A stretch of 64,000 bases of DNA from a virus. The translations under genes and the position numbers were made by a program. Every line of letters begins with the position of its first letter. Position 1 is the stretch's first letter. Shown here piece by piece: positions 24,003 to 47,723 of the stretch. The notes under the pieces are model-generated. The model was not told the DNA's origin, made no database searches, and saw only the letters and a program-made list of their open reading frames with translations. The stretch is from positions 43,637 to 107,636 of the IMG/VR virus record IMGVR_UViG_3300044713_000194. One strand, written 5' to 3'.

Positions 24003-24111
24003 TCCGGCTCCTAGGAGAATCGGGGGAAGCCCTGCCGGGGGCGCTAAATCCCCGGCCCGGACATCCCCTACAAAGGGCCTGATAGCCGAAATAAAGAATT
24101 TTGCGCGATCC

Positions 24112-24142
24112 TCGCAACTTTCACGCGTAGATTACGTCCAAG
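24112..24142 (+). promoter_or_regulatory. tRNA-operon promoter 1 (ECF-sigma-like GCAAC-N16-CGTC)
   Basis: TCGCAACTTT-N9-ATTACGTCCAAG; both boxes identical in the three copies, each upstream of a leader ORF. Confidence 0.85.
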
Positions 24143-24147
24143 GAGAT

Positions 24148-24252
24148 GTGAAACATTTATTGTCGAGTTCGCTATCCCTCTCATCGCTGTGCTATTTGCT
24201 CAGCGGTACGGGTTCGCGTGCTGGAAAGCGGGACGGTTACGATTACTACTAA
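24148..24252 (+). CDS. Attenuator leader peptide 1, MKHLLSSSLSLSSLCYLLSGTGSRAGKRDGYDYY
   Basis: AAGGAG RBS and GTG start; contains TTA, TTG, CTA, CTC, CTG, TCG, TCC, TCA, AGT/AGC, TGC and TAT/TAC, matching all 11 downstream tRNAs. Confidence 0.85.
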   Translation: MKHLLSSSLSLSSLCYLLSGTGSRAGKRDGYDYY

Positions 24253-24277
24253 CCACCGCTGACAAGCAGGAAACGCG

Positions 24278-24308
24278 AACCCCACCAGAAATGGTGGGGT
24301 TTTGCTTT
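24278..24308 (+). terminator. Attenuator terminator 1
   Basis: AACCCCACCA-GAAA-TGGTGGGGTT then TTGCTTT. The 5' arm region ACGCGAACCC (24273-24282) is complementary to leader GGGTTCGCGT (24210-24219). Confidence 0.88.
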
Positions 24309-24310
24309 GT

Positions 24311-24396: not shown

Positions 24397-24411
24397 ACAT
24401 ATTTAGTACGT

Positions 24412-24500: not shown

Positions 24501-24518
24501 GGTTTTGTTTTGCAATGA

Positions 24519-24593
24519 GTGTCGGAACCTAATCGGCTAAGGAATGGTCTGCAAAACCATATTTGGCGGGTTCGACTCCCGCTCGACACTCCA
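24519..24593 (+). tRNA. tRNA-Cys(GCA)
   Basis: ATGGT-CTGCAAA-ACCAT arm, U73, CCA. Confidence 0.9.
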
Positions 24594-24613
24594 TTAGTTT
24601 TGATTTGAAATGT

Positions 24614-24698
24614 CGGGACGTGGCGGAATTGGTAGACGCGCAGGCTTGAGGTGCCTGTGTCCTTGGACGTAAGGGTTCGACTCCCTTCGTCCCGACCA
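24614..24698 (+). tRNA. tRNA-Leu(GAG)
   Basis: CAGGC-TTGAGGT-GCCTG arm, CCA. Confidence 0.93.
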
Positions 24699-24704
24699 TC
24701 GAGA

Positions 24705-24816
24705 TTGTGTACTGATCCTCGTGAAACGAGGCGCTGGCCGAACCCCCAGTGGACTGGACGAGAGTTGTGGCAGGCGAATTGACGCCAAGACGTTAGCGTA
24801 CTCCGGTCGTACACAA
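24705..24816 (+). ncRNA. Candidate structured ncRNA between two Leu tRNAs
   Basis: TTGTGTAC/GTACACAA terminal stem enclosing several hairpins (CCTCGT-GAA-ACGAGG, CCAG-TGGA-CTGG, GGCG-AATTGA-CGCC). Confidence 0.5.
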
Positions 24817-24829
24817 AATTCAGTTATGT

Positions 24830-24918
24830 GCCCGCGTGGCGGAATTGGCAGACGCGCACGGTTCAGGTCCGTGAGGCCCTTCGGGGCCGTGGAGGTTCAA
24901 GTCCTCTCGTGGGCACCA
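24830..24918 (+). tRNA. tRNA-Leu(CAG)
   Basis: CACGG-TTCAGGT-CCGTG arm, long variable arm, CCA. Confidence 0.93.
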
Positions 24919-25026
24919 TGAGGTTCAAAGCGTTGAAACGTGAACTACGAGTTGTCAACTCACAAGTTGTCTAGTCATACATAGTCAAGTCGTACGTTGG
25001 TGCCTATGTATAGATAGTCGGGCCAT

Positions 25027-25115
25027 GGGGGCGTAGCAAAATGGCAAAGCGCCGGTCTTAGAAACCGGAGGAGGTAACCCCTTCATTGCGAGTTCGACTC
25101 TCGCCGCCCCCACCA
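25027..25115 (+). tRNA. tRNA-Leu(TAG)
   Basis: CCGGT-CTTAGAA-ACCGG arm, long variable arm, CCA. Confidence 0.9.
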
Positions 25116-25267
25116 CAAGTTCATGCTGTCGCGCGATCGCAAGTGTTTCGTGCGTCCACAAGCAAATAGTGTTGTGCGATTGCAAGCTTTTCATGTTGTG
25201 CGTTGGTTAGCTTTTAGCGTCAAGGTCTGATGGTTTCGAGAAGAAATCCGACGGTACCTGACGACGA

Positions 25268-25345
25268 GCCCGAGTGAAGGGAAATGGCAGACCTCCCCGC
25301 CTTAAGATCGGGGGCTTGTCGGTTCGAAGCCGACCTCGGGCACCA
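25268..25345 (+). tRNA. tRNA-Leu(TAA), short variable loop
   Basis: Loop CT-TAA-GA; 78 nt; no long variable arm; A73-CCA. Confidence 0.82.
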
Positions 25346-25356
25346 AAATCTGAAAC

Positions 25357-25444
25357 GGTGAGTTGGGAGAGAGGCTGATTCCAGCGGATTGCTAATCCGC
25401 CGAGCCTTCGGGCTCCGCGAGTTCGAATCTCGCACTCACCGCCA
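25357..25444 (+). tRNA. tRNA-Ser(GCT)
   Basis: GCGGA-TTGCTAA-TCCGC arm, long variable arm, G73-CCA. Confidence 0.93.
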
Positions 25445-25554
25445 TATTTGCTGTGCAGCAAATATTACCGTTTAGGAGGCCTTGAGCCCTTAATCGGTAA
25501 AATGTTGCCTATTAACGAGGAATGTGTGAAGCTCCCGCCTCGTTAATGAATCAA

Positions 25555-25649
25555 GGTGTCGTGCGTGAGAGACTGAAACGACTCGCTTGGAAAGCGAGCA
25601 GCCCGGCTGAAACCCGGGCTCCTGGGTTTGAATCCCAGCGACACCGCCA
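25555..25649 (+). tRNA. tRNA-Ser(GGA)
   Basis: CTCGC-TTGGAAA-GCGAG arm, long variable arm, CCA. Confidence 0.9.
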
Positions 25650-25707
25650 ATTTGTCCCCATACATGGGGCGTTAATCGGCTTTAAAGGGCTATATATGGG
25701 TATTTAC

Positions 25708-25802
25708 GGTGGGGTGGCAGAGCCCGCTTTATTGCACCGGTCTCGAAAATCGGCGTGGCCGTGATCCGGCTACCGTGGGTTGAAATCCCACCCCCACCGC
25801 CA
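25708..25802 (+). tRNA. tRNA-Ser(CGA)
   Basis: CCGGT-CTCGAAA-ATCGG arm, long variable arm, CCA. Confidence 0.88.
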
Positions 25803-25853
25803 GCTTGGTGCACGAATCGTAGCTCAGCTACGACGTATAGAATCGTTTCAAAC

Positions 25854-25941
25854 GGAGGGCTGCCGGAGTGGTTTATCGGGCCGGTCTTGAAAACCGTTGA
25901 GCCTTCGGGCTCCGTGGGTTCGAATCCCACGCCCTCCTCCA
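25854..25941 (+). tRNA. tRNA-Ser(TGA)
   Basis: Loop CT-TGA-AA, long variable arm, CCA. Confidence 0.92.
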
Positions 25942-29179: not shown

Positions 29180-29255
29180 TGGAGCGAGCGATGGGACTCG
29201 AACCCACGACCAACAGCTTGGAAGGCTGAGACTCTAGCCGCTGAGTTACGCTCGC
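29180..29255 (-). tRNA. tRNA-Gly(TCC)
   Basis: Loop CT-TCC-AA, U73-CCA. Confidence 0.93.
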
Positions 29256-29518
29256 AGTTTTAACCTTGACACCGGAGGTCGAATATGACCGATCGCCCTA
29301 GACAAAGGGGGATGGAAGTAGCGCGTCACAGAAACCCCGTCTTGGGGAGGTTTGCTACAGACAATTGCAAGTGAAGTTGAAATCAAGTGGGGTTGACTTT
29401 GGACTCCTCGGCGGCGGCTTCATTACGCCTTCTCACGGCACAGGAGCGATCGCTTAAACCGAAGAAAAGCAGGACCAGAAGAACCAGTGCGAACTCCATT
29501 ACGATACCTCTAAGAAAA

Positions 29519-29595
29519 TGGTCGGCCCAGGTCGCATCGAACGACCAACCTCGGCCTTATCAAGACCGCGCTCTAGCCAATTGAGCTATGGGCCG
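29519..29595 (-). tRNA. tRNA-Ile(GAT)
   Basis: Loop TT-GAT-AA, CCA. Confidence 0.92.
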
Positions 29596-29598
29596 CAC

Positions 29599-30237
29599 TT
29601 AAACTCCACGCCGCGTCAGTAACCAAGACCGCTTCGACACTTTCACTCCGACAGGTTCGTTATCCGCACAACACGCGGGCTTGAAAACCGGGTGGCCGTG
29701 GTACTTACACCACTCCGTACGCCCCTCGGAGTCCGGTACGTCCAATTGCTGCTGTCCGTACTCGCAACGCTCACACGAGAACCCGAGCGGATTGTCCGTC
29801 GATCCGGCGCTGAGGCGCTCGTCTTTCCATCGTCCGCTGGGACAGCGCCTGCCTTCGGGGTCGCCTGTGTTGGGCTGCTCCCAAAAACCGCAGCTAAAAT
29901 TGTGCGGCTTATTGATTACCTTGGGATCGCGTAGGAGGCATTCATGGTTAAGAATGACGAACATGTTACATGAGGGAGAACTTCCGTTCTTCCGCCCGCC
30001 ACAAAGGTAGGCTCCCGTCTCGTCGTACGTGTTGGGGAGGCCGCACCGAGCATCCGCGTAGTTGGATGTCCGGACTCCACGCATGCGGAGCTTTGCAAAC
30101 ATGACCTCCTGGTCTTTGGTAAGCGCTCCCTTAGGCTTTGCGAAGAAACCATCCGCATCAAGCGGAGCGTCGAGGATGGGCCTGCCCTCGACCTGAGTTT
30201 GATCAGGCATAATCCGAGACTCCGTTGGACTCAGCAA
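29599..30237 (-). CDS. Cys-rich hypothetical protein
   Basis: 212 aa with many Cys; start may be ~30210. Confidence 0.6.
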   Translation of the reverse strand: MLSPTESRIMPDQTQVEGRPILDAPLDADGFFAKPKGALTKDQEVMFAKLRMRGVRTSNYADARCGLPNTYDETGAYLCGGRKNGSSPSCNMFVILNHECLLRDPKVINKPHNFSCGFWEQPNTGDPEGRRCPSGRWKDERLSAGSTDNPLGFSCERCEYGQQQLDVPDSEGRTEWCKYHGHPVFKPACCADNEPVGVKVSKRSWLLTRRGV

Positions 30238-30284
30238 GAGTGCGAAAGCCTATTTGCACGCACTCCCTACATAGGCCTGAAAAG

Positions 30285-31080
30285 TTCAACGGCGCATCGC
30301 CGCCCTAACCACCGGCGACATCTACGCGCGAGAGTCAGATCGCTATCACCATCGACCTGCGCCCGGGCTCCGGAACGGGTACGTCTGATTCAGGCCGGGC
30401 TCTTTGCCAATTAGAAGACCTCACCGCCGCGTGCAATCTACCTGCTGTGGGCAAGCCGCATCTGCGGTAATTGAGGGAGGGATTCGAACCCTCATTCCCC
30501 GGCATCTCAATGTTTGCCCCCTGCGGCCACCCCTCGCGCAGGGTTACAGCCGTATTTGGTCAGGAGGTCTTTAGCGCGGATCATGGGGCGCTTCAACGGA
30601 CGAAGTCCTCGACCATCCCTCACGGCTCGACCGGGTATCTAATCCGGCCTACCCCTTTACGTTGCGCCTTACCGCCGTGGCCGCATCGCGCTGCTCCACG
30701 GTTCTCTTATGGGGCCGGTAGCCCGTTTCCGCTCTAATGCACCTGCGTGCGGCTGGGAGTCGAACCCAGCCAAGCTGCCGTTGCCCAGCCTGGTTGATGA
30801 CGATGCGCGGGTCGGGTCGGATTCGAACCGACGATCGGCGGTGGTGCCCACCGCTGCTTTAGTCCGCCTAAGCTACCGACCGCGCATCTTTCCGCCCGGT
30901 CCCATCGACCACGCGACTACCGTCTCTTGGCGTTTCGGACCCCACCCCCGGGGTCCAGACGGTGCCTGCTCGCTCGGAACCTTACCGGGCGGAAACCTAA
31001 ATGGGGTCTTTTATCCCTTACGGGTGTCGCTCAGAGCGCCTGCCGAAGCATAAAACTCCGCCACAACATTTTCCCCATAC
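30285..31080 (-). ncRNA. Candidate large (~800 nt) structured ncRNA, GOLLD-like in size and context, with an embedded tRNA-like element
   Basis: No credible CDS; many long stems (e.g. TTCCGCCCGGT/ACCGGGCGGAA, 30890-30994) and several T-loop-like hairpins; begins directly after tRNA-Val. Confidence 0.55.
30804..30886 (-). pseudogene. tRNA-like element with non-canonical anticodon loop and no CCA
   Basis: D-like arm and T arm GTCGG-TTCGAAT-CCGAC; anticodon arm GCGGTG-GGCAC-CACCGC. Confidence 0.6.
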
Positions 31081-31082
31081 CT

Positions 31083-31159
31083 TGGTGTGCAGTCTCGGGC
31101 TCGAACCGAGGGCCTCCTCTTTGTAAGAGAGGCGCTCTAACCAACTGAGCTAACCACAC
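31083..31159 (-). tRNA. tRNA-Val(TAC)
   Basis: CCTCT-CTTACAA-AGAGG arm, CCA. Confidence 0.93.
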
Positions 31160-31167
31160 ACATCGCG

Positions 31168-31272
31168 TTGGGTGACGAACCTCACCAGTTCCAGCTTCGA
31201 CGGGATCGAACCGCCTCCGTCCCTCGCGGGACTCTCGCCTGATGAGTACGACTGCCGCCGCTCATCACCCAA
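31168..31272 (-). ncRNA. tRNA-like domain on a long closing stem (Y-RNA-like architecture)
   Basis: 13-bp stem TTGGGTGATGAGC/GTTCGTCACCCAA encloses a D-like arm, a GCGA tetraloop hairpin and a T arm GCGG-TTCGATC-CCGT. Confidence 0.55.
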
Positions 31273-31310
31273 ATTCACACGGCCAAGATAACTACCATGG
31301 CCGTGTTAGT

Positions 31311-31469
31311 TCACCTCAACTTCGGACAGACCTCGTGGTAGTGGTCCTTCGACCCACAGTAGCTGCACTTACGCCTCGCCAGGTTGCCCTGCCCGTTCCA
31401 GGTCTTCGGACAGTGGTCCGTGTCGTGGCAATGACTGCCGCAGTAGGAACACCAAAGTCGCTTGGTCAT
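31311..31469 (-). CDS. 52-aa tandem CCHC zinc-knuckle protein (not in the ORF track)
   Basis: MTKRLWCSYCGSHCHDTDHCPKTWNGQGNLARRKCSYCGSKDHYHEVCPKLR; two CX2CX4HX4C motifs; ATGA overlap with the upstream ORF. Confidence 0.8.
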   Translation of the reverse strand: MTKRLWCSYCGSHCHDTDHCPKTWNGQGNLARRKCSYCGSKDHYHEVCPKLR

Positions 31470-31690
31470 TTGCGCACAATCACAAGTATGATGACGAGGA
31501 CTATTCCGGCCAGCAGTACCATGTCTATCATCCGCACACTCGGAAGCGCCGACGAATCCGAACTATGCAATTTGACTGACCGCTTTTTCGGTTGGTGTTG
31601 GGGGCAATAGTCCGAACCGAATGCCGACTTCTGCCAGCAGCGTCCTCGCCCGCTTCCCGTTCCGTAAATACAAGCTTTCATCGCAACCAC
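31466..31690 (-). CDS. Small protein with Cys/His motif and C-terminal TM helix
   Basis: ORF track; coupled to the zinc-knuckle gene. Confidence 0.55.
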   Translation of the reverse strand: MVAMKACIYGTGSGRGRCWQKSAFGSDYCPQHQPKKRSVKLHSSDSSALPSVRMIDMVLLAGIVLVIILVIVRK

Positions 31691-31691
31691 C

Positions 31692-31769
31692 TGGCACCCC
31701 GAGTAGGACTTGAACCTACGCCCTCTTCCTTCGGTGGGAAGTGCTCTGATCCGACTGAGCTACCGGGGC
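31692..31769 (-). tRNA. tRNA-Arg(CCG)
   Basis: CTTCC-CACCGAA-GGAAG arm (A33), CCA. Confidence 0.87.
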
Positions 31770-31836
31770 AAAATCAAAAACCTGAAATGACTACGATCCG
31801 AAATCGCGACAATTCAAAAGCCGAGTGAACCGTAGC

Positions 31837-32073
31837 CTATTTCTTCGCCTTCAACTCTGCCCGCATTGTCGCAGCATCTTTGGGCCACAACCATCTCTTA
31901 AAACTGGTCAATTTGCTCTCCGGGACGTGGGTGCGCTTGCAAGCGGCACAGCAGGCGATCACATTGAGAGCGTCCTCGGTCTCTACGGTGTAACCGTATG
32001 CCTGGGTATTCGGGCAGAAGTCGCACTTCACAGTCTTCTCCGAATATTTTTCTTCCAAAATCTGCTTCGCCAT
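31837..32073 (-). CDS. Small Cys-containing hypothetical protein
   Basis: AGGAG RBS; CxxC motifs. Confidence 0.6.
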   Translation of the reverse strand: MAKQILEEKYSEKTVKCDFCPNTQAYGYTVETEDALNVIACCAACKRTHVPESKLTSFKRWLWPKDAATMRAELKAKK

Positions 32074-32091
32074 ACTTCTCCTGCAACCTTA

Positions 32092-32168
32092 TGGTGTCCC
32101 CGGAGAGACTTGAACTCCCGACCTGTTGATTCGTAGTCAGCCGCTCTATCCAACTGAGCTACGAGGAC
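32092..32168 (-). tRNA. tRNA-Arg(ACG)
   Basis: Loop CT-ACG-AA, CCA. Confidence 0.93.
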
Positions 32169-32351
32169 ACGGCCATTTAGAAAAATCCGCCGATCGTCAG
32201 ATCGCCTGGATGCAAGCAGAGGCAATTGAGAACCGTCAACTCCTTCACGGTTAGTGGAGACTTCTTTTTCTCCGCGCTCGACCGAAGATCCGTGCAGACG
32301 ACCTCAACTAGCCTACTGAAGCAGTATGGGCATAGATCACCCGCTTTCAAT

Positions 32352-32804
32352 TCACCCATTTCGCGCCGCCTCCCTACCGCTGCCTGTGATAGCCCAAAGC
32401 GTGCGCGGACGACGGTGAAGATTGTCGATTCCCGCATCCACAATGAAACCCTTCTTGACAAGGGGCTCCATGCGCGGCGTGATCGATCCGTACCAGGTCT
32501 GCGTGCGTTCGGCGATAGCGTGACACGTGAGCGGCCTGTCGGCGGCCATAAGGCATTGCAAAACCACTTGCTCGGATTCGGCTACATTCATCCGGCTCGC
32601 GGCGATCTTTGAGGTTGCCCGATCCCCGTTACGCGCAAACGCCGCGCCAGGCCTTGGTGTACGGTAGCGTCGCGACGGATAGGCCGCGTCGAGAAGTTCC
32701 TCGGCTTTGACCGCGAAGCCTGGCGGGATCTCGTACCCCATCAGAAGCCTGACAAGCTCGCTGGCGACCGCGCGATTATCGGAGTGGCCGGACAAAACGC
32801 CCAT
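32352..32804 (-). CDS. Hypothetical protein with C-terminal winged-HTH-like region
   Basis: PLTCHAIAERT...SITPRMEPLVKKGFIVDAG. Confidence 0.6.
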   Translation of the reverse strand: MGVLSGHSDNRAVASELVRLLMGYEIPPGFAVKAEELLDAAYPSRRYRTPRPGAAFARNGDRATSKIAASRMNVAESEQVVLQCLMAADRPLTCHAIAERTQTWYGSITPRMEPLVKKGFIVDAGIDNLHRRPRTLWAITGSGREAARNG

Positions 32805-33348
32805 GAGGGTTAGTACTGTCCGGCGTTCCGTTTCCCGATTACTGCTTCGCTAAAGCCGCCTTATCGGCGTCGATATGCTTATCGATACATTCACCGCACC
32901 ACCAGGTGTCGGCCACGAGATCGTGATCGTTGCAGGGCTTGCCGCACTCGCAGCATTTGCCGTCCATCGGACAATCGCAGGTGCCATCCGGGCGGAAATG
33001 GTTCTTCAGTCGGCACATCGTCAATCCCCACTTCTAGTTGACCACTCCGGATTCGGGCCGGTGGCCTCTGATCTACGGACCGTCAATGATTCGCATCCAT
33101 GTGTTCTCCTAGAAGCTGGAGAACCAGGGCGGCATCGGTAAAGCGCCGATCAAGATTTGCCCGAAATTGGCATCCGGCCTCCTGGCACCTGTAAAATGAG
33201 CTTGTCTCGTCCACGTCGATGCGCCGCGCGGTGGTTGAGTACATGAACGGAGCCATCGAAAACCGCACTGTGTCCGGCCAACCTTCCAGTACGTTCACGG
33301 AACCTCCACTAAGAGGTAATACGCCGCGTCAGGGCGGAACTGAAATAT

Positions 33349-33427
33349 TGGAGGCCCCGGCGCGATTTGAACGCGCGACCTACCCGTTAGGACCGGGTTG
33401 CTCTTGTCCGGGCTGAGCTACAGGGCC
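33349..33427 (-). tRNA. tRNA-Arg(CCT)
   Basis: ACCCG-GTCCTAA-CGGGT arm (G32), CCA. Confidence 0.9.
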
Positions 33428-33762
33428 GGAATGTTGAAGAAGCCGGTGGCCATACTGAGCTTCATCGCGTCGGCGAGGGCGGATTTGATGGTACCTTCGA
33501 CCCGATCGACCTTACCGACACTCGCATCAAGCCTCTTGACACCCGGAAGAACCAGCGTCTTCATCAAGTTCGCGGCTGCATTGAAGTCATCGATACGAGA
33601 GGCCAGGTCCTGCTGGTCTAGCTGCGTAAGCAAGGTGTTTAGCCCGGTAACGAGCCCGGCAAGCACTCCTTTGGCATCGTCGGATGTGGCGGCGTCCCAA
33701 TACGCATCAGATGCGCTCTGAGCCGCCTTAGCAACCAAATTGCGTACGTCACTTTGCGTCAT
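33418..33762 (-). CDS. Hypothetical helical protein
   Basis: GAGGA RBS; stop codon lies inside the 5' end of tRNA-Arg(CCT). Confidence 0.65.
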   Translation of the reverse strand: MTQSDVRNLVAKAAQSASDAYWDAATSDDAKGVLAGLVTGLNTLLTQLDQQDLASRIDDFNAAANLMKTLVLPGVKRLDASVGKVDRVEGTIKSALADAMKLSMATGFFNIPAL

Positions 33763-34678
33763 GGTTCGTGTCCTCGGTTACGATCTTGTGATGCTCCGTG
33801 GCCAGTCGTTTCAGGCCATCAATCGTGTCGTTCAAGTCCGACTGCGACTTGTCGGCGGCGGCCTCGATCTGGAACAGTTTTAGGATCTCGGCCCGCTTTT
33901 CGACTGGATCGAGGTTTGGATTGTTGTGGATGAATTCAGATTGCTGCATCAGCAGTACGCGATAGTCTCCCTGGGATTGCACCCGGAGCGTATCCAGATC
34001 AGCTTCAAGTAACGAGCAGAGGTCCTGCACAATCGGGTCCGCTTCTTTCATCAGATTGGGCAGCCGCTTCTTCACCATGTGATGAATGAAGGGCTTCAAC
34101 GCCGAGTCCATGCCCGACATAATCGAGTTCACTTGCTGCGGCGTCATGATGACGCTATGGCTGTTCGTCAGGGTGCTGGTGGAGGTCGTCGTCTGAGTGG
34201 TGGTGTCGGTGAGCGTCGGGTTTACCTTGACTGCATTGCTCGATGTGGTAGTGTTGGTATTCGTAGTCGCGTTGCTGGCCATCTCCGTGCGGGCGGCAGC
34301 AGTTGTGATGCTTAAGGATTTTGTCTTCGCCTCGACTTCTACCGCCCGCTGATCGGTGGCAAGAGCATCGATCAGATCGATGTACTCCTTCAGCGCGGCA
34401 ATAGCCTCAATCCGGGGCTGCACGTCCTTCTCGGAAATGAAAGGAACCAGTTCGCCCGGGTGGTAGCCGCCTTGTGCATAGTGGCCAACCAGGACCGACT
34501 CCTCTTGGAGCGTGTGAATTTCGTTCGCCGATGTGTAGGCCGTTGATGCTCGGACAAGTGGAGGAGCGACATTGGCGGAGAATTCGGCCACCTGCCTGGC
34601 CCAAGGCCCGTATCCAGCACAACCGGTCAGAAAGAGTAGCAGACTTAGCAACGGCGCGAGCTTTGAGTTGACCCCCAT
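33749..34678 (-). CDS. Putative lipoprotein
   Basis: MGVNSKLAPLLSLLLFLTGC lipobox; GAGAGG RBS. Confidence 0.65.
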   Translation of the reverse strand: MGVNSKLAPLLSLLLFLTGCAGYGPWARQVAEFSANVAPPLVRASTAYTSANEIHTLQEESVLVGHYAQGGYHPGELVPFISEKDVQPRIEAIAALKEYIDLIDALATDQRAVEVEAKTKSLSITTAAARTEMASNATTNTNTTTSSNAVKVNPTLTDTTTQTTTSTSTLTNSHSVIMTPQQVNSIMSGMDSALKPFIHHMVKKRLPNLMKEADPIVQDLCSLLEADLDTLRVQSQGDYRVLLMQQSEFIHNNPNLDPVEKRAEILKLFQIEAAADKSQSDLNDTIDGLKRLATEHHKIVTEDTNHDAK

Positions 34679-34905
34679 CAAGCACCTCTCGCTATAAGCT
34701 AAATAGTCTGAGGGTCGAAAATCGCTAAGCCCTCGGAAGAAACCACCTCGGCTGCCCAAACAACTGGTGAGTGAGCGAATGCCGGGCCAGATCGCACAGC
34801 ATGCACTCCTCGCGATCCAGGCTGACCGGCTCGAACCGATGTCCCGCCAGCAGTGTGCACACCGGACGCAAAAACGTTCTCCACTTCATCGTTAACTCCT
34901 CGATT

Positions 34906-34982
34906 TGGTGCTCCAGATGGGATTCGAACCCATATCTCCGCCGTGAAAGGGCGGCCACCTAAACCATTAGTACGACTGGAGC
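34906..34982 (-). tRNA. tRNA-Glu(TTC)
   Basis: CCGCC-CTTTCAC-GGCGG arm, CCA. Confidence 0.92.
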
Positions 34983-35044
34983 GTCTTTAAAGCTGCAATT
35001 TTCTACGCTTGAGCCTCTTACAAACTGCTGTTTTTCAAAACCAG

Positions 35045-35121
35045 TGGAGGGCGCGGCAGGACTCGAACCCGCCTGATCCACCTACGGTTTCTCGTTTAGA
35101 AAACGAGACCGATACACGCCC
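35045..35121 (-). ncRNA. D-armless tRNA-like RNA with UCU loop and CCA end
   Basis: 7-bp acceptor stem, extended stem CTCGT-TTTCTAA-ACGAG, T arm, TCCA end; no D arm. Confidence 0.7.
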
Positions 35122-35146
35122 AACTTGACCGTATTCGCGAACAAAC

Positions 35147-35374
35147 CTATACGTACTTGAAGGTGCCCTTTTGTAGCATCTTAAGCGCCGATTCGAGCGC
35201 CTTCTCGCCGTTCGGCCTTTTGAGCCTCTGAATCGGCGTCAGTCCTGCAAACCTGTGCTTGGGTAGCTTGAGCCACCGCTGAGCCCGGAATCGGCTGCCG
35301 TGAACCTGGATCGCCAACTTCATTATCGAAGCGGGCACTTTTACCTGCGCGGGCTTGACCGTTTTCTGCCTCAT
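35147..35374 (-). CDS. Stand-alone Xre/MbcA/ParS-type antitoxin C-terminal domain
   Basis: AQRWLKLPKHRFAGLTPIQRL...G...LESAL pattern. Confidence 0.65.
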   Translation of the reverse strand: MRQKTVKPAQVKVPASIMKLAIQVHGSRFRAQRWLKLPKHRFAGLTPIQRLKRPNGEKALESALKMLQKGTFKYV

Positions 35375-35502
35375 GAATGGTAATACTGAGGCTTATGGTC
35401 AGTCCGGATTAAAAGCCTTTTATTTTTCGCCTGGAAGCTAGGCGGCCCAATAAACAGCGGTTGAACTTCAAGTGACTTCTCCCTCCATTGCAGAGGGTAT
35501 TT

Positions 35503-35862
35503 ATGACCGCCGCCGAACTGCTAGTCCAGAGCATTCGCAAAGCAACTCAGCTAGAGATGCAGACGGATGAAGACGTCTTTACCCCATTCATCGTCTTCTT
35601 CAATCCCGTCAGCGATGCATCTGAGGTTGTTTGCCTCGTCTATGAGAACGCCGAAGACCTCCTCGAAGACCTGAAAGAGGCTCTCCAAAAGAAATGGGAA
35701 CCGGTCGCCGTCGAACTATGCGAAGGCGAGGACGTCGAGAAGGATGACTTCCCGTGCCTCGGGTGGATGTATTTCAGCGATGATCCCAGCCTCGAACACC
35801 AGGCCATTATGGATAGTCTCCACGAGCCCGATGTCGCCGAGGACCATGTCTCCGAAGCGTAA
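35503..35862 (+). CDS. Acidic hypothetical protein
   Basis: GAGGG RBS; coding-like composition. Confidence 0.6.
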   Translation: MTAAELLVQSIRKATQLEMQTDEDVFTPFIVFFNPVSDASEVVCLVYENAEDLLEDLKEALQKKWEPVAVELCEGEDVEKDDFPCLGWMYFSDDPSLEHQAIMDSLHEPDVAEDHVSEA

Positions 35863-35863
35863 C

Positions 35864-35955
35864 TGGTGCGCCCGGCAGGATTCGAACCTGCGGCGGGAGT
35901 TTCCTCCGTCCGATTAAAAGTCGGGTCCCTGCTAACCAGACTCGGGTACGAGCGC
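35864..35955 (-). tRNA. tRNA-Lys(TTT) with long variable arm
   Basis: Loop CT-TTT-AA; variable hairpin GGAG-GAAA-CTCC; 92 nt; A73-CCA. Confidence 0.82.
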
Positions 35956-35963
35956 GTTAAAAC

Positions 35964-36038
35964 TGGTGGGCCGTCAGAGGATCGAACTCTGCTCTGAGGA
36001 TTAAGAGTCCCCTGCTTCGCCGACAAAGCTTACAGCCC
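35964..36038 (-). tRNA. tRNA-Lys(CTT)
   Basis: Loop CT-CTT-AA, CCA. Confidence 0.9.
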
Positions 36039-36135
36039 AAACTTGATGCGTTTTCACTGAAAACCCCGTTTTATATGGTGTCATAAAGTGCATCAAAACA
36101 CCCCGAAAACGGGGGTTTTGCTACAGAGAATGACA

Positions 36136-36212
36136 TGGTGGGCCTGGTGGTGATTCGAACCCACAGCCTTCCGATTATGAGTCGGCTGCTCTACCAATTG
36201 AGCTACAGGCCC
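36136..36212 (-). tRNA. tRNA-Ile2(CAT), lysidine type (inferred)
   Basis: CAT anticodon; GGGCCTG acceptor typical of Ile2; CCA. Confidence 0.78.
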
Positions 36213-36217
36213 AAATC

Positions 36218-36294
36218 TGGTGGCGGCGGAAGCAATCGAAGCTTCGACCTTGGGGTTATGAGTCCCACGCTCTGACCACCTGAGCTACGCCGCC
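36218..36294 (-). tRNA. tRNA-Met(CAT), elongator
   Basis: CAT anticodon; GGCGGCG acceptor; CCA. Confidence 0.85.
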
Positions 36295-36302
36295 ACGATG
36301 AT

Positions 36303-36532
36303 TGCTTCGACGAGCAGGGCTGGCAACCTGCATCTGCGGCTTCTGGATAGGTGGGCCGCTGACTTCCGTTAGGGGGTTGACACCGTGCCCCCATTCCGCT
36401 CCGCCGTTTCCGGAGTTAATCGATCATCGATCTTCGCGCACCCTTCAGATTATCCCCACTCTTGCAGGAACCAAGCCTGTCGGCCTGGCGGGATCGGCAC
36501 CACGGTTACCCGCTGCGCTTATATGCCGAACT
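36303..36532 (-). ncRNA. Candidate ~230-nt structured ncRNA
   Basis: Non-coding gap in the tRNA array; 5' TTCGGC can pair with 3' GTCGAA; T-arm-like GCAGG-TTGCCAGC-CCTGC near the 3' end. Confidence 0.4.
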
Positions 36533-36712
36533 TTCCGATCGGGTGTGTTGCTACACCAAAGAACTCTGACCGGCGAATCGTCGTTTGTTCCTCTTATCCG
36601 GAGGACTTCACTAAATCTGTAAATTCGCCGGGTGCGGTATCGCCTTGCGGCGTCCGCGCGGTTCACTCTTTAAAGGAAATGGCTACTTTTAGGCCAACCT
36701 CCCCGGTCGAAA
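36533..36712 (-). ncRNA. 23S rRNA GTPase-associated-centre (L11-binding, H42-H44) mimic with ~110-nt insertion
   Basis: GGAGGTTGGCCTAAAAGTAGCCATTTCCTTTAAAGAGTG closely matches bacterial 23S H43; H44-like GTGT-AGCA-ACAC; closing stem TTCGACCGGG/CCCGATCGGA. Confidence 0.75.
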
Positions 36713-36716
36713 TTTA

Positions 36717-36792
36717 TGGCGGGGCCGACGAGCTTCGATCTCGCTACCTCGGCAGTGACAGTGCCGCGCTCTGCCAATTGAGCTACGACCCC
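36717..36792 (-). tRNA. tRNA-Asp(GTC)
   Basis: CGGCA-CTGTCAC-TGCCG arm, G73-CCA; T loop ATCGAAG. Confidence 0.9.
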
Positions 36793-36809
36793 GCAAAAAC
36801 CTCGAAGAT

Positions 36810-36885
36810 TGGCATGGGCAGAGGGATTCGAACCCCCAAGTTCGGTTTTGGAGACCGACAGTTTACCAATTGAGCTTATGCCCAT
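36810..36885 (-). tRNA. tRNA-Trp(CCA)
   Basis: Loop CT-CCA-AA, G73-CCA. Confidence 0.93.
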
Positions 36886-37057
36886 GTATGCCCGGCCATC
36901 GTGTAGGCCGGGTTCAACTTCACTTTCAATTGTCAAAGACCTTCACCTGGGCCTGAGCCCCGATCTTGGTGGGGGTGGGTGGGCGGAAGCAATCGAGCAG
37001 CCGATCCCACGTCCCTTTGAACGTTTTAGCTGCTCTTTCCTCCGATCCGCATCCCCA

Positions 37058-37088
37058 CAAAGCAAAACCCCCGGCCTTAGCCGGGGGT
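37058..37088 (-). terminator. Attenuator terminator 2
   Basis: ACCCCCGGC-TAAG-GCCGGGGGT then TTTGCTTT. The 5' arm region CACGACCCCC is complementary (with a bulge) to the leader end GGGGGTTCCGTG. Confidence 0.88.
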
Positions 37089-37114
37089 CGTGAACCTACG
37101 AGTAAACCACTCGG

Positions 37115-37216
37115 TTACACGGAACCCCCCAGCACGCGATCCCATCCTTCGCGCACTACGCTCTCCATCCGCTTAACGCGGATGTTGACAGTCGTTTTTA
37201 TGGTCCTGGAGTTCAT
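37115..37216 (-). CDS. Attenuator leader peptide 2, MNSRTIKTTVNIRVKRMESVVREGWDRVLGGSV
   Basis: GAAGGA RBS; contains AGG, ATA, AAA, ATC, CGC, AAG, CGG, ATG, GTA, GAA, GGA, TGG and GAT, matching all 13 downstream tRNAs. Confidence 0.85.
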   Translation of the reverse strand: MNSRTIKTTVNIRVKRMESVVREGWDRVLGGSV

Positions 37217-37237
37217 GTAAAGAGTATCCTTCCCTTG

Positions 37238-37268
37238 CTTGGACGTAATCCCTAGCCAAAAGTTGCGA
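37238..37268 (-). promoter_or_regulatory. tRNA-operon promoter 2 (GCAAC-N16-CGTC)
   Basis: TCGCAACTTTTGGCTAGGGATTACGTCCAAG. Confidence 0.85.
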
Positions 37269-37297
37269 AGTTTTGTAGGATTTGATTCGGAGGTAAT

Positions 37298-37513
37298 ATG
37301 TCAATCAACACACTCGTATCCGAAATCGATCATGAAATTGCCGGACTCACTCAAGCCCGGAAGATCCTAACCTCTTTAAACGGGCATTCGACACGACCCG
37401 CCGCCGGAACGCATAAACGCAGGCCTCTCTCGGTCGCGGCCCGGAAGCGGATCGCTGCGGCCCAAAAGAAACGATGGGCGGAGCAGAGGAAAGCCGCGAA
37501 GAAAACTGCGTAG
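37298..37513 (+). CDS. Small basic coiled-coil/histone-like protein
   Basis: GGAGG RBS; EIDHEIAGLTQAR...LSVAARKRIAAAQKKRWA. Confidence 0.75.
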   Translation: MSINTLVSEIDHEIAGLTQARKILTSLNGHSTRPAAGTHKRRPLSVAARKRIAAAQKKRWAEQRKAAKKTA

Positions 37514-37802
37514 ACTAAGCCCGCGCCAGCTTCTCTTCTACAAACCCCCGCACAACTTCTTTAGCCTTAACCTGATCGATGGGATGGAACGCGCCTACGG
37601 CGTGCACGACAGGGCCGCCGCCGCGTTCCTCGATCACCACGACAAACTCATTGAATGGGCAAGCCTTCGTGAGGCGGTCCGCGAGATCCCACGCGGCATC
37701 CGCCGTTCGTGTCTTCGTGATGCGGTTGAGTAGAAGCATAGAAGAGGCCGTCATAACGATGGCTTCTTCATTATGCTTTGAAGTTGCTTAATCGGAAACT
37801 GT

Positions 37803-38165: not shown

Positions 38166-38243
38166 TGGCCCGAGGAGCGGGAGTCGAACCTGCCCACCGG
38201 ATGACTGCGCAGACCCCGGCGCTACCCACATGCCAGTCCTCGG
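38166..38243 (-). ncRNA. CCA-terminated tRNA-like RNA with degenerate anticodon arm
   Basis: Acceptor CCGAGGA/TCCTCGG-GCCA and T loop TTCGACT intact; centre weakly paired. Confidence 0.55.
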
Positions 38244-39720: not shown

Positions 39721-40926
39721 TCAGTCTTTATAGGGGTCCCGCTCTGTCGAAGACGCCATTGCCACGCCAACCGGCGTCAGCCGGTGCAGAATCTTGACCG
39801 AGTCCTCGACTGAAGCCAGGACCTCGTCAAGGCGCTTGTAGCAATCCGGCGACTCATCGAGGCCGCCGCCGCGAAGCTCGATACCCGCGCGATCGATCCA
39901 GGCACGCATCATCTCCTGGGTAACTTTGCCTTCACGGACGACGCGGACTTCACCCGTCTCCTTGTTCTTCTTGGTAACACCGGTCGCTTCCTTGCGCCCC
40001 ATCGCGCGGCCTGCACCGTGCACGGTCGAGTAGAGAGAGTACTTTGCGTTCTCGTTCTCGACACCCTCAAGGATCACCGACTGCTCACCCATCGAGCCGC
40101 CGACAAAGCCCTTCCGGCCTGGGTAGGCCGGTGTTGCCCCCTTACGGACAACCCAATACCACTCACCGCCATGGAATTCACGCCATGCATAATTGTGGTG
40201 GTTGTGGACTTCCTCAATAACGGGAGCGCCGAGAATCTTTGCAACGCGATCACATACCCAGTCGCGGCCCGAATAAGCGTAGGCACCGGCCAAATGCATC
40301 GCCAGGAGGTACTGGTCACCGAGATCGCTCTTCACGTCAAGCACGCATGGCTCAACCTCCATGCCGTCCTTCGCTCCGGCAGCCTTGAGGAACCAGGTTG
40401 CGATGCCGTGGCCAAGACCGCGCGAACCGAAGTGCACGCCAATCCAGACGCGATCCTGCTCGTCGGTGAACAGGTCCACGTAGTGGTTGCCGGAGCCCAC
40501 CGTACCAAGCTGAACGACAGCCTTCTGATGCAGAGGCTTGCAGGCCGCCAGCTTCCACGCATCGGCATGGGCGAAGTCTTCCCACAAGACGGAGCTATCG
40601 ACCTTCTCGTTGTTCTTGCGGCCTACGCCGAAGCTGATCGTCTTCCACACGTCGTCCATGATCGTCTTGATGTTGGCGCGAAGCTCCGTGCCGGTCATGT
40701 CTACGCGGACTGCCTTGTTGCCGCAGCCGATGTCGTAGCCCACGCCGGTCGGGCTGATGGCATCCTTGTACGCCACCACTCCGCCGATCGGCACACCGTA
40801 GCCCAGATGGTTGTCTGGCATCAGCGCCACCTTGTCGGCGGTCTTCGCGCACGTGCGTATCTGGTTGAGCGTCTTCTCGTCGGCTTCGCCGAATACCGGG
40901 ATCTTTCCGTCAATGAGTTGCATCAT
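39721..40926 (-). CDS. rtcB: RtcB RNA ligase (2',3'-cyclic phosphate/5'-OH)
   Basis: MPDNHLGYGVPIGG, GYDIGCG, GSGNHY, HFGSRG, NHHN, RKGAT, HGAGR, DESPDCYK. Confidence 0.95.
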   Translation of the reverse strand: MMQLIDGKIPVFGEADEKTLNQIRTCAKTADKVALMPDNHLGYGVPIGGVVAYKDAISPTGVGYDIGCGNKAVRVDMTGTELRANIKTIMDDVWKTISFGVGRKNNEKVDSSVLWEDFAHADAWKLAACKPLHQKAVVQLGTVGSGNHYVDLFTDEQDRVWIGVHFGSRGLGHGIATWFLKAAGAKDGMEVEPCVLDVKSDLGDQYLLAMHLAGAYAYSGRDWVCDRVAKILGAPVIEEVHNHHNYAWREFHGGEWYWVVRKGATPAYPGRKGFVGGSMGEQSVILEGVENENAKYSLYSTVHGAGRAMGRKEATGVTKKNKETGEVRVVREGKVTQEMMRAWIDRAGIELRGGGLDESPDCYKRLDEVLASVEDSVKILHRLTPVGVAMASSTERDPYKD

Positions 40927-42519
40927 TTCTTTTCTCCCGCGACCTCGTCTTTTGACCAGTACCACTTTCCCTTATTCTGCACTACGCCCTTGAATCCACG
41001 CGGTGGGCAAAACTCGCGGCCTTCTATGTCGAGGAATGCCCGCTTGCGAGCCCGTATAGCGTAGATACCGTCCCTCATGCATGGTTGGGGCACAATTGGC
41101 AGTAGAACTGCGATCGCCATCAACGTTCACACCTGGGCTGTCCAGTAGTTCTCGCGTCGAATGCAATCGAGGCAAGCTCCGCAGCCGCTGCAATGGCTTA
41201 CCGCCGGTACCCGCATTGCCGCGAGGACGCGTGCCGCCAAAGTATCGTCGAACTTTTCGGATCGTCCATCGAAGAAGCCTCTCATAGGCTCCTGCCGTGG
41301 CCGATAGCAATGCTTTCGAATCTCGTCTGCGGTCTTGATGTCTTGTGCGATCGGCTTCACGTCACAATGAATGCAGAGGCGGTTGACGATGTTTACCGAG
41401 CCGCAACGATCACAGAAGGCGTGACCGTCCGCGCGGTAGTTGATGCCGTCGCGCATGGAGTACTCCATGGGCTCCGCCGCACATTCGTCTCCCGTGGTAT
41501 TTGGCATGTTCCGAAAACCTCCCTAGTGGCTAATACTGAGGCGGAAGGACGGAATTCACATACCCATTAACATTATTCCAAATATTCTTGGTGACCGCCC
41601 TGCGCCGCCCGTTTATGTGCTTCGCGGCGTTTCCGCTTGTGTCCAAAGTACTTATCGGCGTGACAAAGCTTTGAGCCGCAGCCAAGGTTCCACTTGGAGT
41701 ATCGACCCCAGGCGGAAGGCTCCGTGGGATGGACACGGTTGATGAGGTTGGTGCGTTCCTGAACGCGGTGACTGTCGGTCCAGACGTGGTCATGGATAAA
41801 GCGCCGCTTCGCGATGACGCGGTCGCGCTGGTGCCGACGTTCGGCACGATTGGTTGGATGACTCATGGCTGATGCCGCCCCCTTCGTGCGGTGTGTTACA
41901 TCGAAGCCATGAATTCCTCCTCGGACACTTCCACAAGAATCGCCCCCGTTTCGTCTTCAATTATCCACTTGCGATCGAGCCCAAGCTCAATCAGTTCGCG
42001 TACCCCGATTTCAGGAGGCACATCGGCCAGGTTCCTCAGCCGGATTTCACTCAGCCTAATTTGGAGAGACCGAAGACTGAACATCGTTCCATTGAGTTCC
42101 CGCAGCGCGGCTTTGAAATCGAAGATACCGTTCATAAGTCTGTGCCCTTGTGTGTTTCCAGTTGGTGTGGATCAGAAGGCGCAAGAAATTCAGTACCGGG
42201 CTGTTTTCGATGAACTCCACTGGGAGGCCGTCACGACCGATCGGAGTCTTGCCGAATATCTTCACCCTCGCCCCCTTTCTCTACTGGCGCATGATCCGAT
42301 TCCGGCAACATACACTTAGGAATCTCCGTGCGTATTCCGCCGATATATGCGCACACCTCGATACAATCGTCCCAGCTATGCCCGTCCTTGCGCATATTGC
42401 GCACCAGGCGCTCCAGCCCGCGCCGAAAGTTCCGGATTTCCCGCCTACGCTGGAGCCACTTTTTCAGCCAGATCATATTCGCCTTTCGTCAAACTTCCCG
42501 GCGTCTTGCCACTGAGACC

Positions 42520-42715
42520 ACGCGAATGCCTCGACATTCGCGGCGGGATTCGAACCCGCGTTTCCGGGCTTGATGGCGCTCTACCAGCCTGAGCCACTCG
42601 CCGCTTGGCACTACCGGTCAAGCCGGGATCTCCATAAGGCGAGGCGGGATTCGAACCCGCGACCTCCATCCTACTTTTGTCTAACCGGCGTCCTGGGCTT
42701 GAACGATTGGGGGGA
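42520..42715 (-). pseudogene. Two tRNA remnants
   Basis: Two GCGGG-TTCGAAT-CCCGC T arms with D-like arms but no valid anticodon arm or CCA. Confidence 0.55.
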
Positions 42716-44368: not shown

Positions 44369-44881
44369 TCAGTAATAGAGAAACTGCCTCCACGCCGGAT
44401 CGCGGTGACCGATCTTCCGCATCAGATGGCGGCTCGTGTGGATTGTCGCCGGTCTAGGACGGTTCAAAAGGACCATTCCCGCCTCTTCCGGCGTCCGGTC
44501 GGCCTTCTTCCCGTTACACGACTTGCATGCCGTCACCAGGTTCTCCCAGGTGTCCGGGCCGCCCTGCGCCCGAGGCGTGACATGGTCCAATGTCAAGTCG
44601 CGCACATGGAAGTGTTCTCCGCAATACTGACACTGGTAGTCATCCCGAAGGAAGATGTTCCGAGCCGAAGGCCGCGTCCTGATGTGCGGGACCTTGCGGA
44701 ACTCAATCAGCCGGACAACGCTGGGCAGCTTGATGCCCCTGTGAATTTCCTGATCGTGCTCTACCTCGGCCAATGCAACGGCCTTGCAAATCAACTTAAT
44801 CGCGTCGCGGGCCGCCGCGAAACGCAGGGGTTCGTACGAAGCGTTCAACACCAGCACCGGTCTGTCCATCACTGCGCCCAT
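44369..44881 (-). CDS. HNH endonuclease (McrA-like)
   Basis: VLVLNASYEP...RDDYQCQYCG...TLDHV...WENLVTACKSCNGKK. Confidence 0.9.
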   Translation of the reverse strand: MGAVMDRPVLVLNASYEPLRFAAARDAIKLICKAVALAEVEHDQEIHRGIKLPSVVRLIEFRKVPHIRTRPSARNIFLRDDYQCQYCGEHFHVRDLTLDHVTPRAQGGPDTWENLVTACKSCNGKKADRTPEEAGMVLLNRPRPATIHTSRHLMRKIGHRDPAWRQFLYY

Positions 44882-44905
44882 ACAATTACCCCCGAAACCT
44901 TGTTG

Positions 44906-44982
44906 TGGAGCCGGTGAGGGCAATCGAAACCCTGACCTGCGGTTTACGAAACCGCCGCTCTGGCCACCTGAGCTACACCGGC
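44906..44982 (-). tRNA. tRNA-Thr(CGT)
   Basis: GCGGT-TTCGTAA-ACCGC arm, CCA. Confidence 0.92.
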
Positions 44983-45187
44983 CCGACTCAAACTCTGAAC
45001 TTCCATCCGCACACAATCGAGGCAAGTCCTAGCCTTTGAGATCCCGTGCAGGAAAATTTCTCTATACGTACCACCCTGAGAAAGACGTTCGTAGACGCTC
45101 AACACATCTCCGTCCAGGTTGATCTGTGTCATACAACACTCCCTTGATAGGAATACCGTTTCGCTATAGCGATTCGGAATATTAAAG

Positions 45188-47293: not shown

Positions 47294-47350
47294 ACAATGC
47301 AACTAACGTCGTTCCTGCTTCGTTCCCTCCCGGGGAGTGTTTACTCCGCA

Positions 47351-47380
47351 AATGAAAACCCCAGGCGCTTTGCCTGGGGT
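47351..47380 (-). terminator. Attenuator terminator 3
   Basis: ACCCCAGGC-AAAGC-GCCTGGGGT then TTTCATT. The 5' arm region GAGACCCC is complementary to the leader end GGGGTCTC. Confidence 0.88.
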
Positions 47381-47405
47381 CTCGAAACCTGCGATCGCTG
47401 ATCGC

Positions 47406-47504
47406 TTAGTCGATGAGACCCCCGTTCAGATGCGCGGGCGTACCGGCCTGCGGCTGATTGCCGTTGGCTGGTACGGTAAACCGGGTTGTTGCTTGCTGCA
47501 TCAT
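47406..47504 (-). CDS. Attenuator leader peptide 3, MMQQATTRFTVPANGNQPQAGTPAHLNGGLID
   Basis: GGAAGAGG RBS; contains ATG, CAG, CAA, GCA, ACA, ACC, ACG, TTT, CCA, CCG, CCC, AAC, GGC and CAT, matching all 14 downstream tRNAs. Confidence 0.85.
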   Translation of the reverse strand: MMQQATTRFTVPANGNQPQAGTPAHLNGGLID

Positions 47505-47526
47505 CGACACAAAACCTCTTCCTATG

Positions 47527-47557
47527 CTTGGACGTAATGTTTTTGCAAAAGTTGCGA
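47527..47557 (-). promoter_or_regulatory. tRNA-operon promoter 3 (GCAAC-N16-CGTC)
   Basis: TCGCAACTTTTGCAAAAACATTACGTCCAAG. Confidence 0.85.
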
Positions 47558-47723
47558 AGAAAGTTTACTTCTTACAAAGAGGACCCTCGTGCAGCGATGT
47601 CATCGCCTCAATTTGCTCGGCTGCTGTAATCGTCTCCAGTGTTCCTGGGAAACTCGTCTTTGAATACAACTCTATTGCTTCGCCTCTCTCGGCGGAGCTA
47701 ACTATATCGAACACGTGGGCGCT

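Follow-up and report, generated by a model that had tools for sequence, protein, structure and literature searches.

Leader-peptide attenuation has been known for about 50 years from amino-acid operons, and enterobacterial examples are the multivalent leaders of thr (Thr and Ile) and ilvGMEDA (Ile, Leu and Val), together with those of trp, his, leu and pheA. These leaders consist of a promoter-proximal short ORF, in which regulatory codons for one to three amino acids are arranged in runs, and of an intrinsic terminator ahead of genes for biosynthetic enzymes. Alternative pairings (1:2, 2:3 and 3:4) are available to the transcript, and the position of the ribosome reads the speed of decoding. 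In the trp attenuator, the terminator is more stable than the antiterminator and control is kinetic. Attenuation also couples the state of the tRNA pool to the translation apparatus in the pheM leader of pheST, which senses one amino acid and controls a synthetase, and in T-box leaders, which bind uncharged tRNA directly and without translation.

The role of phage tRNA genes is debated, and codon-usage compensation, replacement of degraded host tRNAs and escape from anticodon nucleases have been proposed. Phage tRNA sets such as those of T4 and the T5-type arrays are associated with compensation for host tRNA loss or for anticodon-nuclease defence. To our knowledge, these arrays have been described as constitutively or temporally expressed, and we know of no codon-matched feedback sensor described for them. 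The nearest published case to the locus presented here is the L-array (trn operon) of Anabaena sp. PCC 7120, which is silent and is induced by translational stress with co-regulation of rtcB. Its control is exerted by a repressor that acts at promoter repeats, and neither of the two papers that describe it (PMC8421152, PMC10272220) uses the words leader, attenuation or terminator. A full-text literature search found no paper in which tRNA genes or phage tRNA arrays are connected with attenuation or leader peptides, and no published description of leader-type control of tRNA genes was found; the mechanism proposed below would itself be a variant of known leader-peptide attenuation.

The window analysed here is a stretch of 64,000 nucleotides, bases 43637-107636 of a 107,636-bp IMG/VR virus record. 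CheckV estimates this record to be approximately 35% complete, which makes it part of a very large phage genome. ARAGORN predicts 39 tRNA genes between 24.3 and 47.3 kb of the window, 32 of which are supported by Rfam at the gathering score and three more with permissive filters. The set is made up of three co-oriented blocks:

24311-25941, plus strand: tRNA block 1, with Leu (five genes), Ser (four), Tyr and Cys
36885..29180, minus strand: tRNA block 2, with 13 tRNAs (Trp CCA, Asp GTC, two with CAT, Lys CTT, Lys TTT, Glu TTC, Arg CCT, Arg ACG, Arg CCG, Val TAC, Ile GAT and Gly TCC, according to ARAGORN)
47293-37803, minus strand: tRNA block 3, with Asn, Ala, Phe, Pro (three), Gln (two), Gly-GCC, Thr (three) and His

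Ahead of block 2 lies a short ORF, leader 2, which is fairly likely to be the core of a ribosome-mediated leader-peptide transcription attenuator gating this 13-gene block. Its codon-matched sequence probably lets the phage make block-2 tRNAs only when the corresponding codons are read slowly. In mechanism, such a device would be closest to the thr and ilvGMEDA leaders. It shares with the enterobacterial leaders the promoter-proximal short ORF with regulatory codons and the intrinsic terminator before the regulated genes; the alternative 1:2, 2:3 and 3:4 pairings, the more stable terminator conformer and the reading of decoding speed by ribosome position are predicted here as well. Unlike the enterobacterial leaders, it precedes tRNA genes, it addresses about 13 isoacceptors, mostly once each, and it is phage-borne and belongs to three codon-partitioned paralogous cassettes. 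As in pheM and the T-boxes, attenuation would couple the tRNA pool to the translation apparatus, but the target would be the tRNA genes themselves, and no T-box covariance-model match is present in 24-48 kb at E <= 5. The likeness to the Anabaena L-array lies in a horizontally mobile supernumerary tRNA array that is predicted to be silent by default and induced on impaired translation, and in the presence of rtcB (39721-40965), which is located within block 3; the two differ in that the L-array is under repressor control, whereas leader attenuation is proposed here. With the T4- and T5-type arrays, the locus shares a large phage genome that combines a near-complete tRNA set with an RNA ligase (RtcB).

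If the attenuator reading is correct, phage tRNA supply is feedback-regulated and not constitutive, and each leader lists, codon by codon, the decoding events that the phage monitors. Leader-peptide attenuation would thereby extend from amino-acid operons to tRNA genes, a single sensor would address about a dozen isoacceptors in place of one to three amino acids, and the cassettes would provide compact, directly testable parts (about 180 nt) with which single tRNA species could be sensed in vivo.

The elements of leader 2, in order of transcription, are the following:

37238..37269, minus strand: promoter-like motif TTCGCAACTTT-N9-ATTACGTCCAAG, 32 nt, located 21 nt upstream of the leader-2 ATG
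37227..37234, minus strand: Shine-Dalgarno-like GGGAAGGA, 10 nt upstream of the leader-2 ATG
37216..37115, minus strand: leader 2 ORF, ATG plus 32 sense codons plus TAA (33 sense codons)
37208..37214, minus strand: segment 1, GAACTCC (codons 1-3), candidate anti-antiterminator in the RNAfold minimum-energy structure
37183..37167 and 37156..37132, minus strand: two hairpins within the ORF, which may act as pause hairpins
37129..37118, minus strand: segment 2, GGGGGTTCCGTG, which spans the final four sense codons and would form the 5' arm of the antiterminator
37092..37083, minus strand: segment 3, CACGACCCCC, 3' arm of the proposed antiterminator, overlapping the 5' arm of the terminator with CCCCC common to both
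37056..37089 (stem 37089..37066), minus strand: intrinsic terminator with 10 pairs (8 G-C), a 4-nt loop and the T-rich tail TTTTGCTTTG

Motif, Shine-Dalgarno site, ORF, terminator and tRNAs follow each other on the minus strand with nothing in between. The 5' arm of the terminator, CCCCCGGC, starts 27 nt past the stop codon. This terminator is the top terminator match in 28.5-48 kb. The number of terminator-like matches in the region does not exceed that in shuffles. A distance of 178 nt separates it from tRNA-Trp, and no sigma-70-like promoter match is found in between (37062..36886), where phage promoters of other types could hide. Block 2 itself extends over 7.7 kb, and protein ORFs and further RNA-like stretches lie scattered among its tRNA genes. 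Within the block there are also two weak signals, one promoter-like (36326..36298) and one consisting of a small hairpin followed by a T-run (36114..36101). Because the block is long and has promoter-like and terminator-like sites of its own, leader 2 need not control all 13 tRNAs. Two further features are seen 3' of the leader-2 terminator: a C-rich, G-poor tract, CCGCCCACCCACCCCCACC, at 36960-36995 on the minus strand, which is a candidate Rho-loading site, and a hairpin, CCGGCC-N8-GGCCGG, directly ahead of tRNA-Trp, which is a candidate processing site.

The first-pass annotation had described 37058-37216 as a leader that samples the codons of block 2, and the minus-strand sequence bears this out with accurate coordinates. 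AGG, CGC (three times), CGG, ATA, ATC, AAA, AAG, an internal ATG, GAA, GAG, GTA, GTG, GGA, TGG and GAT are all present, AGA is missing as described, and all sampled codons lie 5' of the G-rich segment 2. The block-2 sampler comprises codons 4-26, and codons 12-28 are nearly pure block 2. With codons assigned to blocks by standard wobble rules, and with 200,000 random peptides drawn from the codon usage of the phage's 62 long ORFs as the null, all 13 block-2 anticodons have a cognate codon in leader 2 (simulation P = 4e-5). Own-block codons account for 20 of 32 positions, compared to a share of 0.364 in the 62 long ORFs (P = 0.0024), and an own-block count of at least 20 jointly with 13/13 coverage has a simulated P of 1e-5. 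Among the stop-free windows of 32 codons in all six frames of the 107-kb record (n = 6986), not one reaches the same coverage.

All 13 block-2 tRNAs score between 48 and 66 bits with RF00005. The two CAT tRNAs are unlike each other, and the C1xA72 mismatch of bacterial initiator tRNA is absent from both. If both are taken as Met, coverage becomes 12/12, which only 4 of the 6986 windows match; the codon match thus does not hinge on calling one of them Ile2. The first-pass annotation had also taken the use of normally rare codons as a sign of selection on codon identity rather than on the peptide. AGG, ATA and GTA are indeed rare in the long ORFs of this phage (4.6, 4.3 and 9.8 per 1000), and when the peptide was held fixed and synonyms were redrawn according to phage usage, full coverage arose with P = 0.019, or with P = 0.002 when each U34 tRNA had to meet an A-ending codon. 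This result supports selection on codon identity, beyond the peptide alone. One element of the earlier description is not recovered: a D-armless RNA with a UCU loop in block 2 is not called by ARAGORN, its D-armless mode included.

Among the three leaders, purity is lowest in leader 2, where 10 codons belong to other blocks (three Thr, two Asn, three Ser, one Leu and Gly-GGT) and two Val codons remain unread under strict wobble. The majority of the sampled codons are present only once. This suggests a design suited to the severe loss of one isoacceptor rather than to mild starvation. Two tRNAs called by ARAGORN only, tRNA-Cys(GCA) at 30807-30882 and tRNA-Arg(GCG) at 38166-38243, both on the minus strand, have no Rfam tRNA match, the one at 30807 reaching only 22.7 bits to tRNA-Sec. 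Their codons are missing from the leaders of their own blocks, i.e., TGY from leader 2 and CGY from leader 3. A seemingly Arg-rich ORF ahead of the three Arg tRNAs was rejected as a further candidate, being an alternative frame of a 114-aa gene.

The 32-nt motif upstream of leader 2 recurs with at most one mismatch at only two other places, which define two paralogous cassettes:

24111..24309, plus strand: cassette 1, with motif 24111-24142, ORF 24148..24252, arms 24210-24219 and 24273-24282 and terminator 24280-24309, adjoining tRNA-Leu at 24311
47349..47558, minus strand: cassette 3, with motif 47558-47527, ORF 47504..47406, arms 47422..47415 and 47383..47376 and terminator 47379..47349, ahead of block 3 including rtcB

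With five mismatches allowed, no further copy of the motif is present in the window or in the whole 107-kb record, and none was obtained in 100 shuffles. Each cassette consists of the motif, an ORF of 32-34 codons, a G-rich segment, a spacer and a C-rich segment overlapping a strong terminator, followed by a tRNA block. The distance from stop codon to terminator is 27, 27 and 26 nt across the cassettes. The aligned cassettes have in common the motif, a GYAGGWWWC element and an GGGGTTTT..TTTG tail, whereas their ORFs have wholly diverged; the terminator tail of leader 2 is common to leader 1. The copies of the GYAGGWWWC element (GTAGGTTCA at 37093-37101, GCAGGAAAC at 24264-24272 and GCAGGTTTC at 47384-47392) have a fixed place between stop codon and terminator, directly 5' of segment 3.

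The ORFs have diverged in line with the tRNA blocks that they precede. Codons of blocks 1, 2 and 3 number 20, 7 and 5 in leader 1, 4, 20 and 6 in leader 2 and 2, 6 and 21 in leader 3 (chi-square 48.4, p = 8e-10), and own-block coverage is 100% for each leader (11/11, 13/13 and 13/13). Leader 1 contains 16 consecutive Leu, Ser, Cys and Tyr codons ahead of the Leu/Ser/Cys/Tyr block. The borders of the blocks are set by the cassettes and not by codon content, and in cassette 1 the terminator tail directly adjoins the first tRNA, so that no additional promoter would fit between them. Leader 3 has the Shine-Dalgarno site AGGAAGAGG at the same 10-nt spacing as leader 2, and no well-spaced Shine-Dalgarno site precedes leader 1. 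Leader 1 also lacks the 5' UTR of approximately 21 nt of leaders 2 and 3, and its mRNA may therefore be leaderless or nearly so. It begins 5 nt past the promoter-like motif, where GAGATGTG (24143-24150, plus strand) forms an ATG-TGA mini-frame that overlaps the GTG start.

All three copies of the motif contain AAC-N16-CGTC, which resembles the ECF-sigma consensus of a -35 AAC and a -10 CGT(C) element about 16 nt apart and makes the 32-nt motif a candidate ECF-sigma promoter. A reading as a sigma-70 promoter was rejected, as the match to the -10 element is poor. No Sigma70_r2 match and no sigma-factor gene were found in the 107-kb record, itself about 35% of the estimated genome.

Folding of all three leaders is much more stable than that of their dinucleotide shuffles (z = -3.9, -4.5 and -4.5). 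In the full-length minimum-energy fold of leader 2 (RNAfold), the G-run of segment 2 is taken up by GAACUCC of codons 1-3, CGUG is paired with CACG, and the terminator is closed, which corresponds to the 1:2 plus 3:4 state. When a 28-nt ribosome mask was moved along the ORF, the terminator of leader 2 formed with P >= 0.96 at equilibrium for every position of the mask, and an equilibrium ribosome-masking switch is therefore not supported for leader 2. As the terminator dominates at equilibrium, any switch in leader 2 would have to be kinetic. Forced conformers differ by +5.2 kcal/mol in leader 2, +0.9 kcal/mol in leader 1 and +3.0 kcal/mol in leader 3 (antiterminated minus terminated), and gaps of this order are found in classical attenuators. 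A pyrBI-type logic is excluded by the geometry, because a ribosome terminating 27 nt before the terminator cannot mask the terminator hairpin.

In a model of the nascent transcript, in which the 3' arm of the terminator has not yet been made, segment 3 is paired with segment 2 at P = 1.00 for A-site codons 2-25, and pairing drops to 0.89 at codon 26 and to 0.56-0.72 at codons 27-34. The G-rich end of the ORF can therefore pair with the 5' arm of the terminator, as the first-pass annotation had suggested. In the same model, the antiterminator also forms without any ribosome, and readthrough is predicted in that case too. The strength of the pairing was controlled by comparing the energy gained on adding segment 3 to the real upstream leader and to dinucleotide-shuffled versions of it (n = 150). 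For leader 2, 101 of 150 shuffles gain at least as much energy, i.e., the segment 2:3 pairing is no better than chance and constitutes no evidence by itself; the corresponding numbers are 3/150 for leader 1 and 16/150 for leader 3, in which perfect complements of 10 bp and 8 bp, respectively, overlap the base of the terminator. The weight of the leader-2 pairing lies in its homologous place in all three cassettes and in its position exactly under the terminating ribosome.

Building on the observed anatomy, codon statistics and conservation of the cassette across the paralogues, the attenuator is predicted to operate in the following way. Transcription would start at the conserved ECF-like promoter motif, and a ribosome would load at the Shine-Dalgarno site and translate the 33-codon ORF with its at least one cognate codon per block-2 tRNA. 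With prompt decoding, the ribosome would reach the last codons and the stop codon and cover the G-rich segment 2. The C-rich segment 3 would then stay free, the terminator would form, and transcription would stop 27 nt plus one hairpin past the stop codon without any tRNA being made. If a sampled isoacceptor is scarce, the ribosome would stall upstream, between codon 2 and about codon 25, and leave segment 2 uncovered. Free segment 2 could then pair with nascent segment 3 and delay closure of the terminator stem, so that the polymerase would enter the tRNA genes. The predicted outcome is a demand-driven feedback on phage tRNA supply with isoacceptor resolution, and cassettes 1 and 3 would act likewise on the other two blocks.

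More tentatively, the three cassettes together might allow the phage to survey the tRNA pool isoacceptor by isoacceptor and to respond to the catastrophic loss of a single tRNA species, e.g., by host anticodon nucleases or by phage-induced decay of host tRNAs. A single hungry codon could then call up replacement tRNAs and, via cassette 3, also the RtcB ligase and its neighbours, which would constitute a self-limiting counter-defence circuit and not a nutritional attenuator. This wider role is possible but doubtful at present.

Whatever probability lies beyond the attenuator reading falls mainly to other outputs of the same sensor. Leader 2 could be a real decoding sensor that acts not via the segment 2:3 antiterminator but via Rho access to the C-rich tract after the terminator, via stability or processing of the precursor, or through a system that is on by default and is switched off only once translation has been completed. 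Such outputs would explain why strong codon statistics are combined with a leader-2 antiterminator that does not surpass shuffles and loses to the terminator at equilibrium; the formation of the antiterminator without a ribosome in the nascent-RNA model suggests a default-on state, and the tract CCGCCCACCCACCCCCACC would be suitably placed. They are nevertheless rather unlikely in view of the perfect 10-bp and 8-bp complements at the terminator base in leaders 1 and 3, of the homologous position of the G-run/C-run pairing in each of the three cassettes, and of the fixed stop-to-terminator spacing, which fits a ribosome-masking design.

Explanations that dispense with a decoding sensor are less probable still. 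An incidental ORF would not give 13/13 coverage and a match at the synonymous level, three times and each time with the right block, and it would not account for Shine-Dalgarno sites at identical spacing in leaders 2 and 3. It is on these grounds improbable that the leaders are structured untranslated 5' RNAs, i.e., protein-, tRNA- or metabolite-binding elements or processing or insulating modules, although the very strong folding of all three (z about -4) and the start of leader 1, possibly at or near the 5' end of its transcript and without a well-spaced Shine-Dalgarno site, would suit such a role; the lack of a match of leader 2 to an Rfam family, such as the T-box, at E <= 5 speaks against it as well. 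The remaining reading, that leader 2 is one of the ordinary small genes of the phage or an ORF present by chance, with the terminator of a short unit, that the tRNAs have promoters of their own and that the codon match reflects coincidence or post-hoc selection, is very improbable. Small ORFs are plentiful in the window, promoters of another type could be present in the 178 nt before tRNA-Trp, and terminator-like matches in the region are no more frequent than in shuffles, but the joint P of about 1e-5 for count and coverage in leader 2 alone and the block-specific pattern repeated in two paralogues argue against coincidence, as do block borders that follow the cassettes, a cassette-1 terminator in contact with the first tRNA and a motif that occurs nowhere else in 107 kb.

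The surroundings of the cassettes contain several additional features. Phage tRNA regions are known to be accompanied by homing endonucleases, and genes for an HNH endonuclease (44369-45025, minus strand) and a GIY-YIG-type homing endonuclease (5633-6472, minus strand) are located within block 3 and elsewhere in the window, respectively. Two giant ORFs encode 3091 aa (13718-22993, minus strand) and 1784 aa (50692-56046, minus strand). Between tRNA-Asp and the CAT tRNAs of block 2, positions 36625-36707 (minus strand) match the Rfam model of bacterial LSU rRNA (24.5 bits, E = 6e-4) at model positions 1091-1152, which belong to the GTPase-associated centre and L11-binding region. A match to YrlA (Y RNA-like) at 42573-42668 (minus strand; 40.9 bits, gathering score 69, E = 5e-6) adjoins tRNA-His at a distance of 1.6 kb from rtcB, an arrangement reminiscent of the rsr-yrlA-rtcBA operons for RNA repair in bacteria. 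Two tmRNA-like repeats of 18 nt each are present at 42543-42560 and 42644-42661.

Homologues of the system were sought by promoter pattern, by nucleotide similarity and by protein neighbours. An 18-base promoter pattern has 0 matches in IMG/VR and 11 chance-level matches in 185,579 genomes, none of them at a tRNA array. A 14-base pattern gives 108 single, chance-like matches in IMG/VR, only one of which (L103) lies near tRNAs, with the motif on the opposite strand. A blastn search of 36890-37800 against GenBank phages returned no match. RtcB relatives in IMG/VR occur at 66 loci, the closest with 63-68% identity; the motif is present in none of these loci, and most are without tRNAs. The 336-aa ORF of block 2 (34759..33749), the 1784-aa ORF and a 256-aa ORF have no relatives in IMG/VR. 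In a set of 5.8 billion proteins, the 336-aa ORF has two relatives, P0002 (75% identity, on an 8.9-kb contig) and P0003 (52%), and the one JGI locus (L178) is without tRNAs.

When the other arrays examined were scanned for ORFs whose codons match a tRNA block downstream of them, no convincing case emerged. In G001 (L190), the array of 43 tRNAs is of mixed isotypes and lacks leader/terminator cassettes. An 'MM...' ORF ahead of the L152 and L154 arrays was rejected as an analogue, as it runs into tRNA-Pro without stop codon or terminator and is missing in L170. The cassette system is thus not universal among the tRNA arrays examined (G001, L152 and L154). The two RtcB-carrying phages among these have a different arrangement, in which a good sigma-70 promoter (TTGACA-N17-TATAAG) and a conserved structured RNA of approximately 150 nt (GAGAGCCCAGUGGCCCGUC...) lie between rtcB and an array of 9-10 tRNA genes (L152, 11340-11540; L154, 2575-2760).
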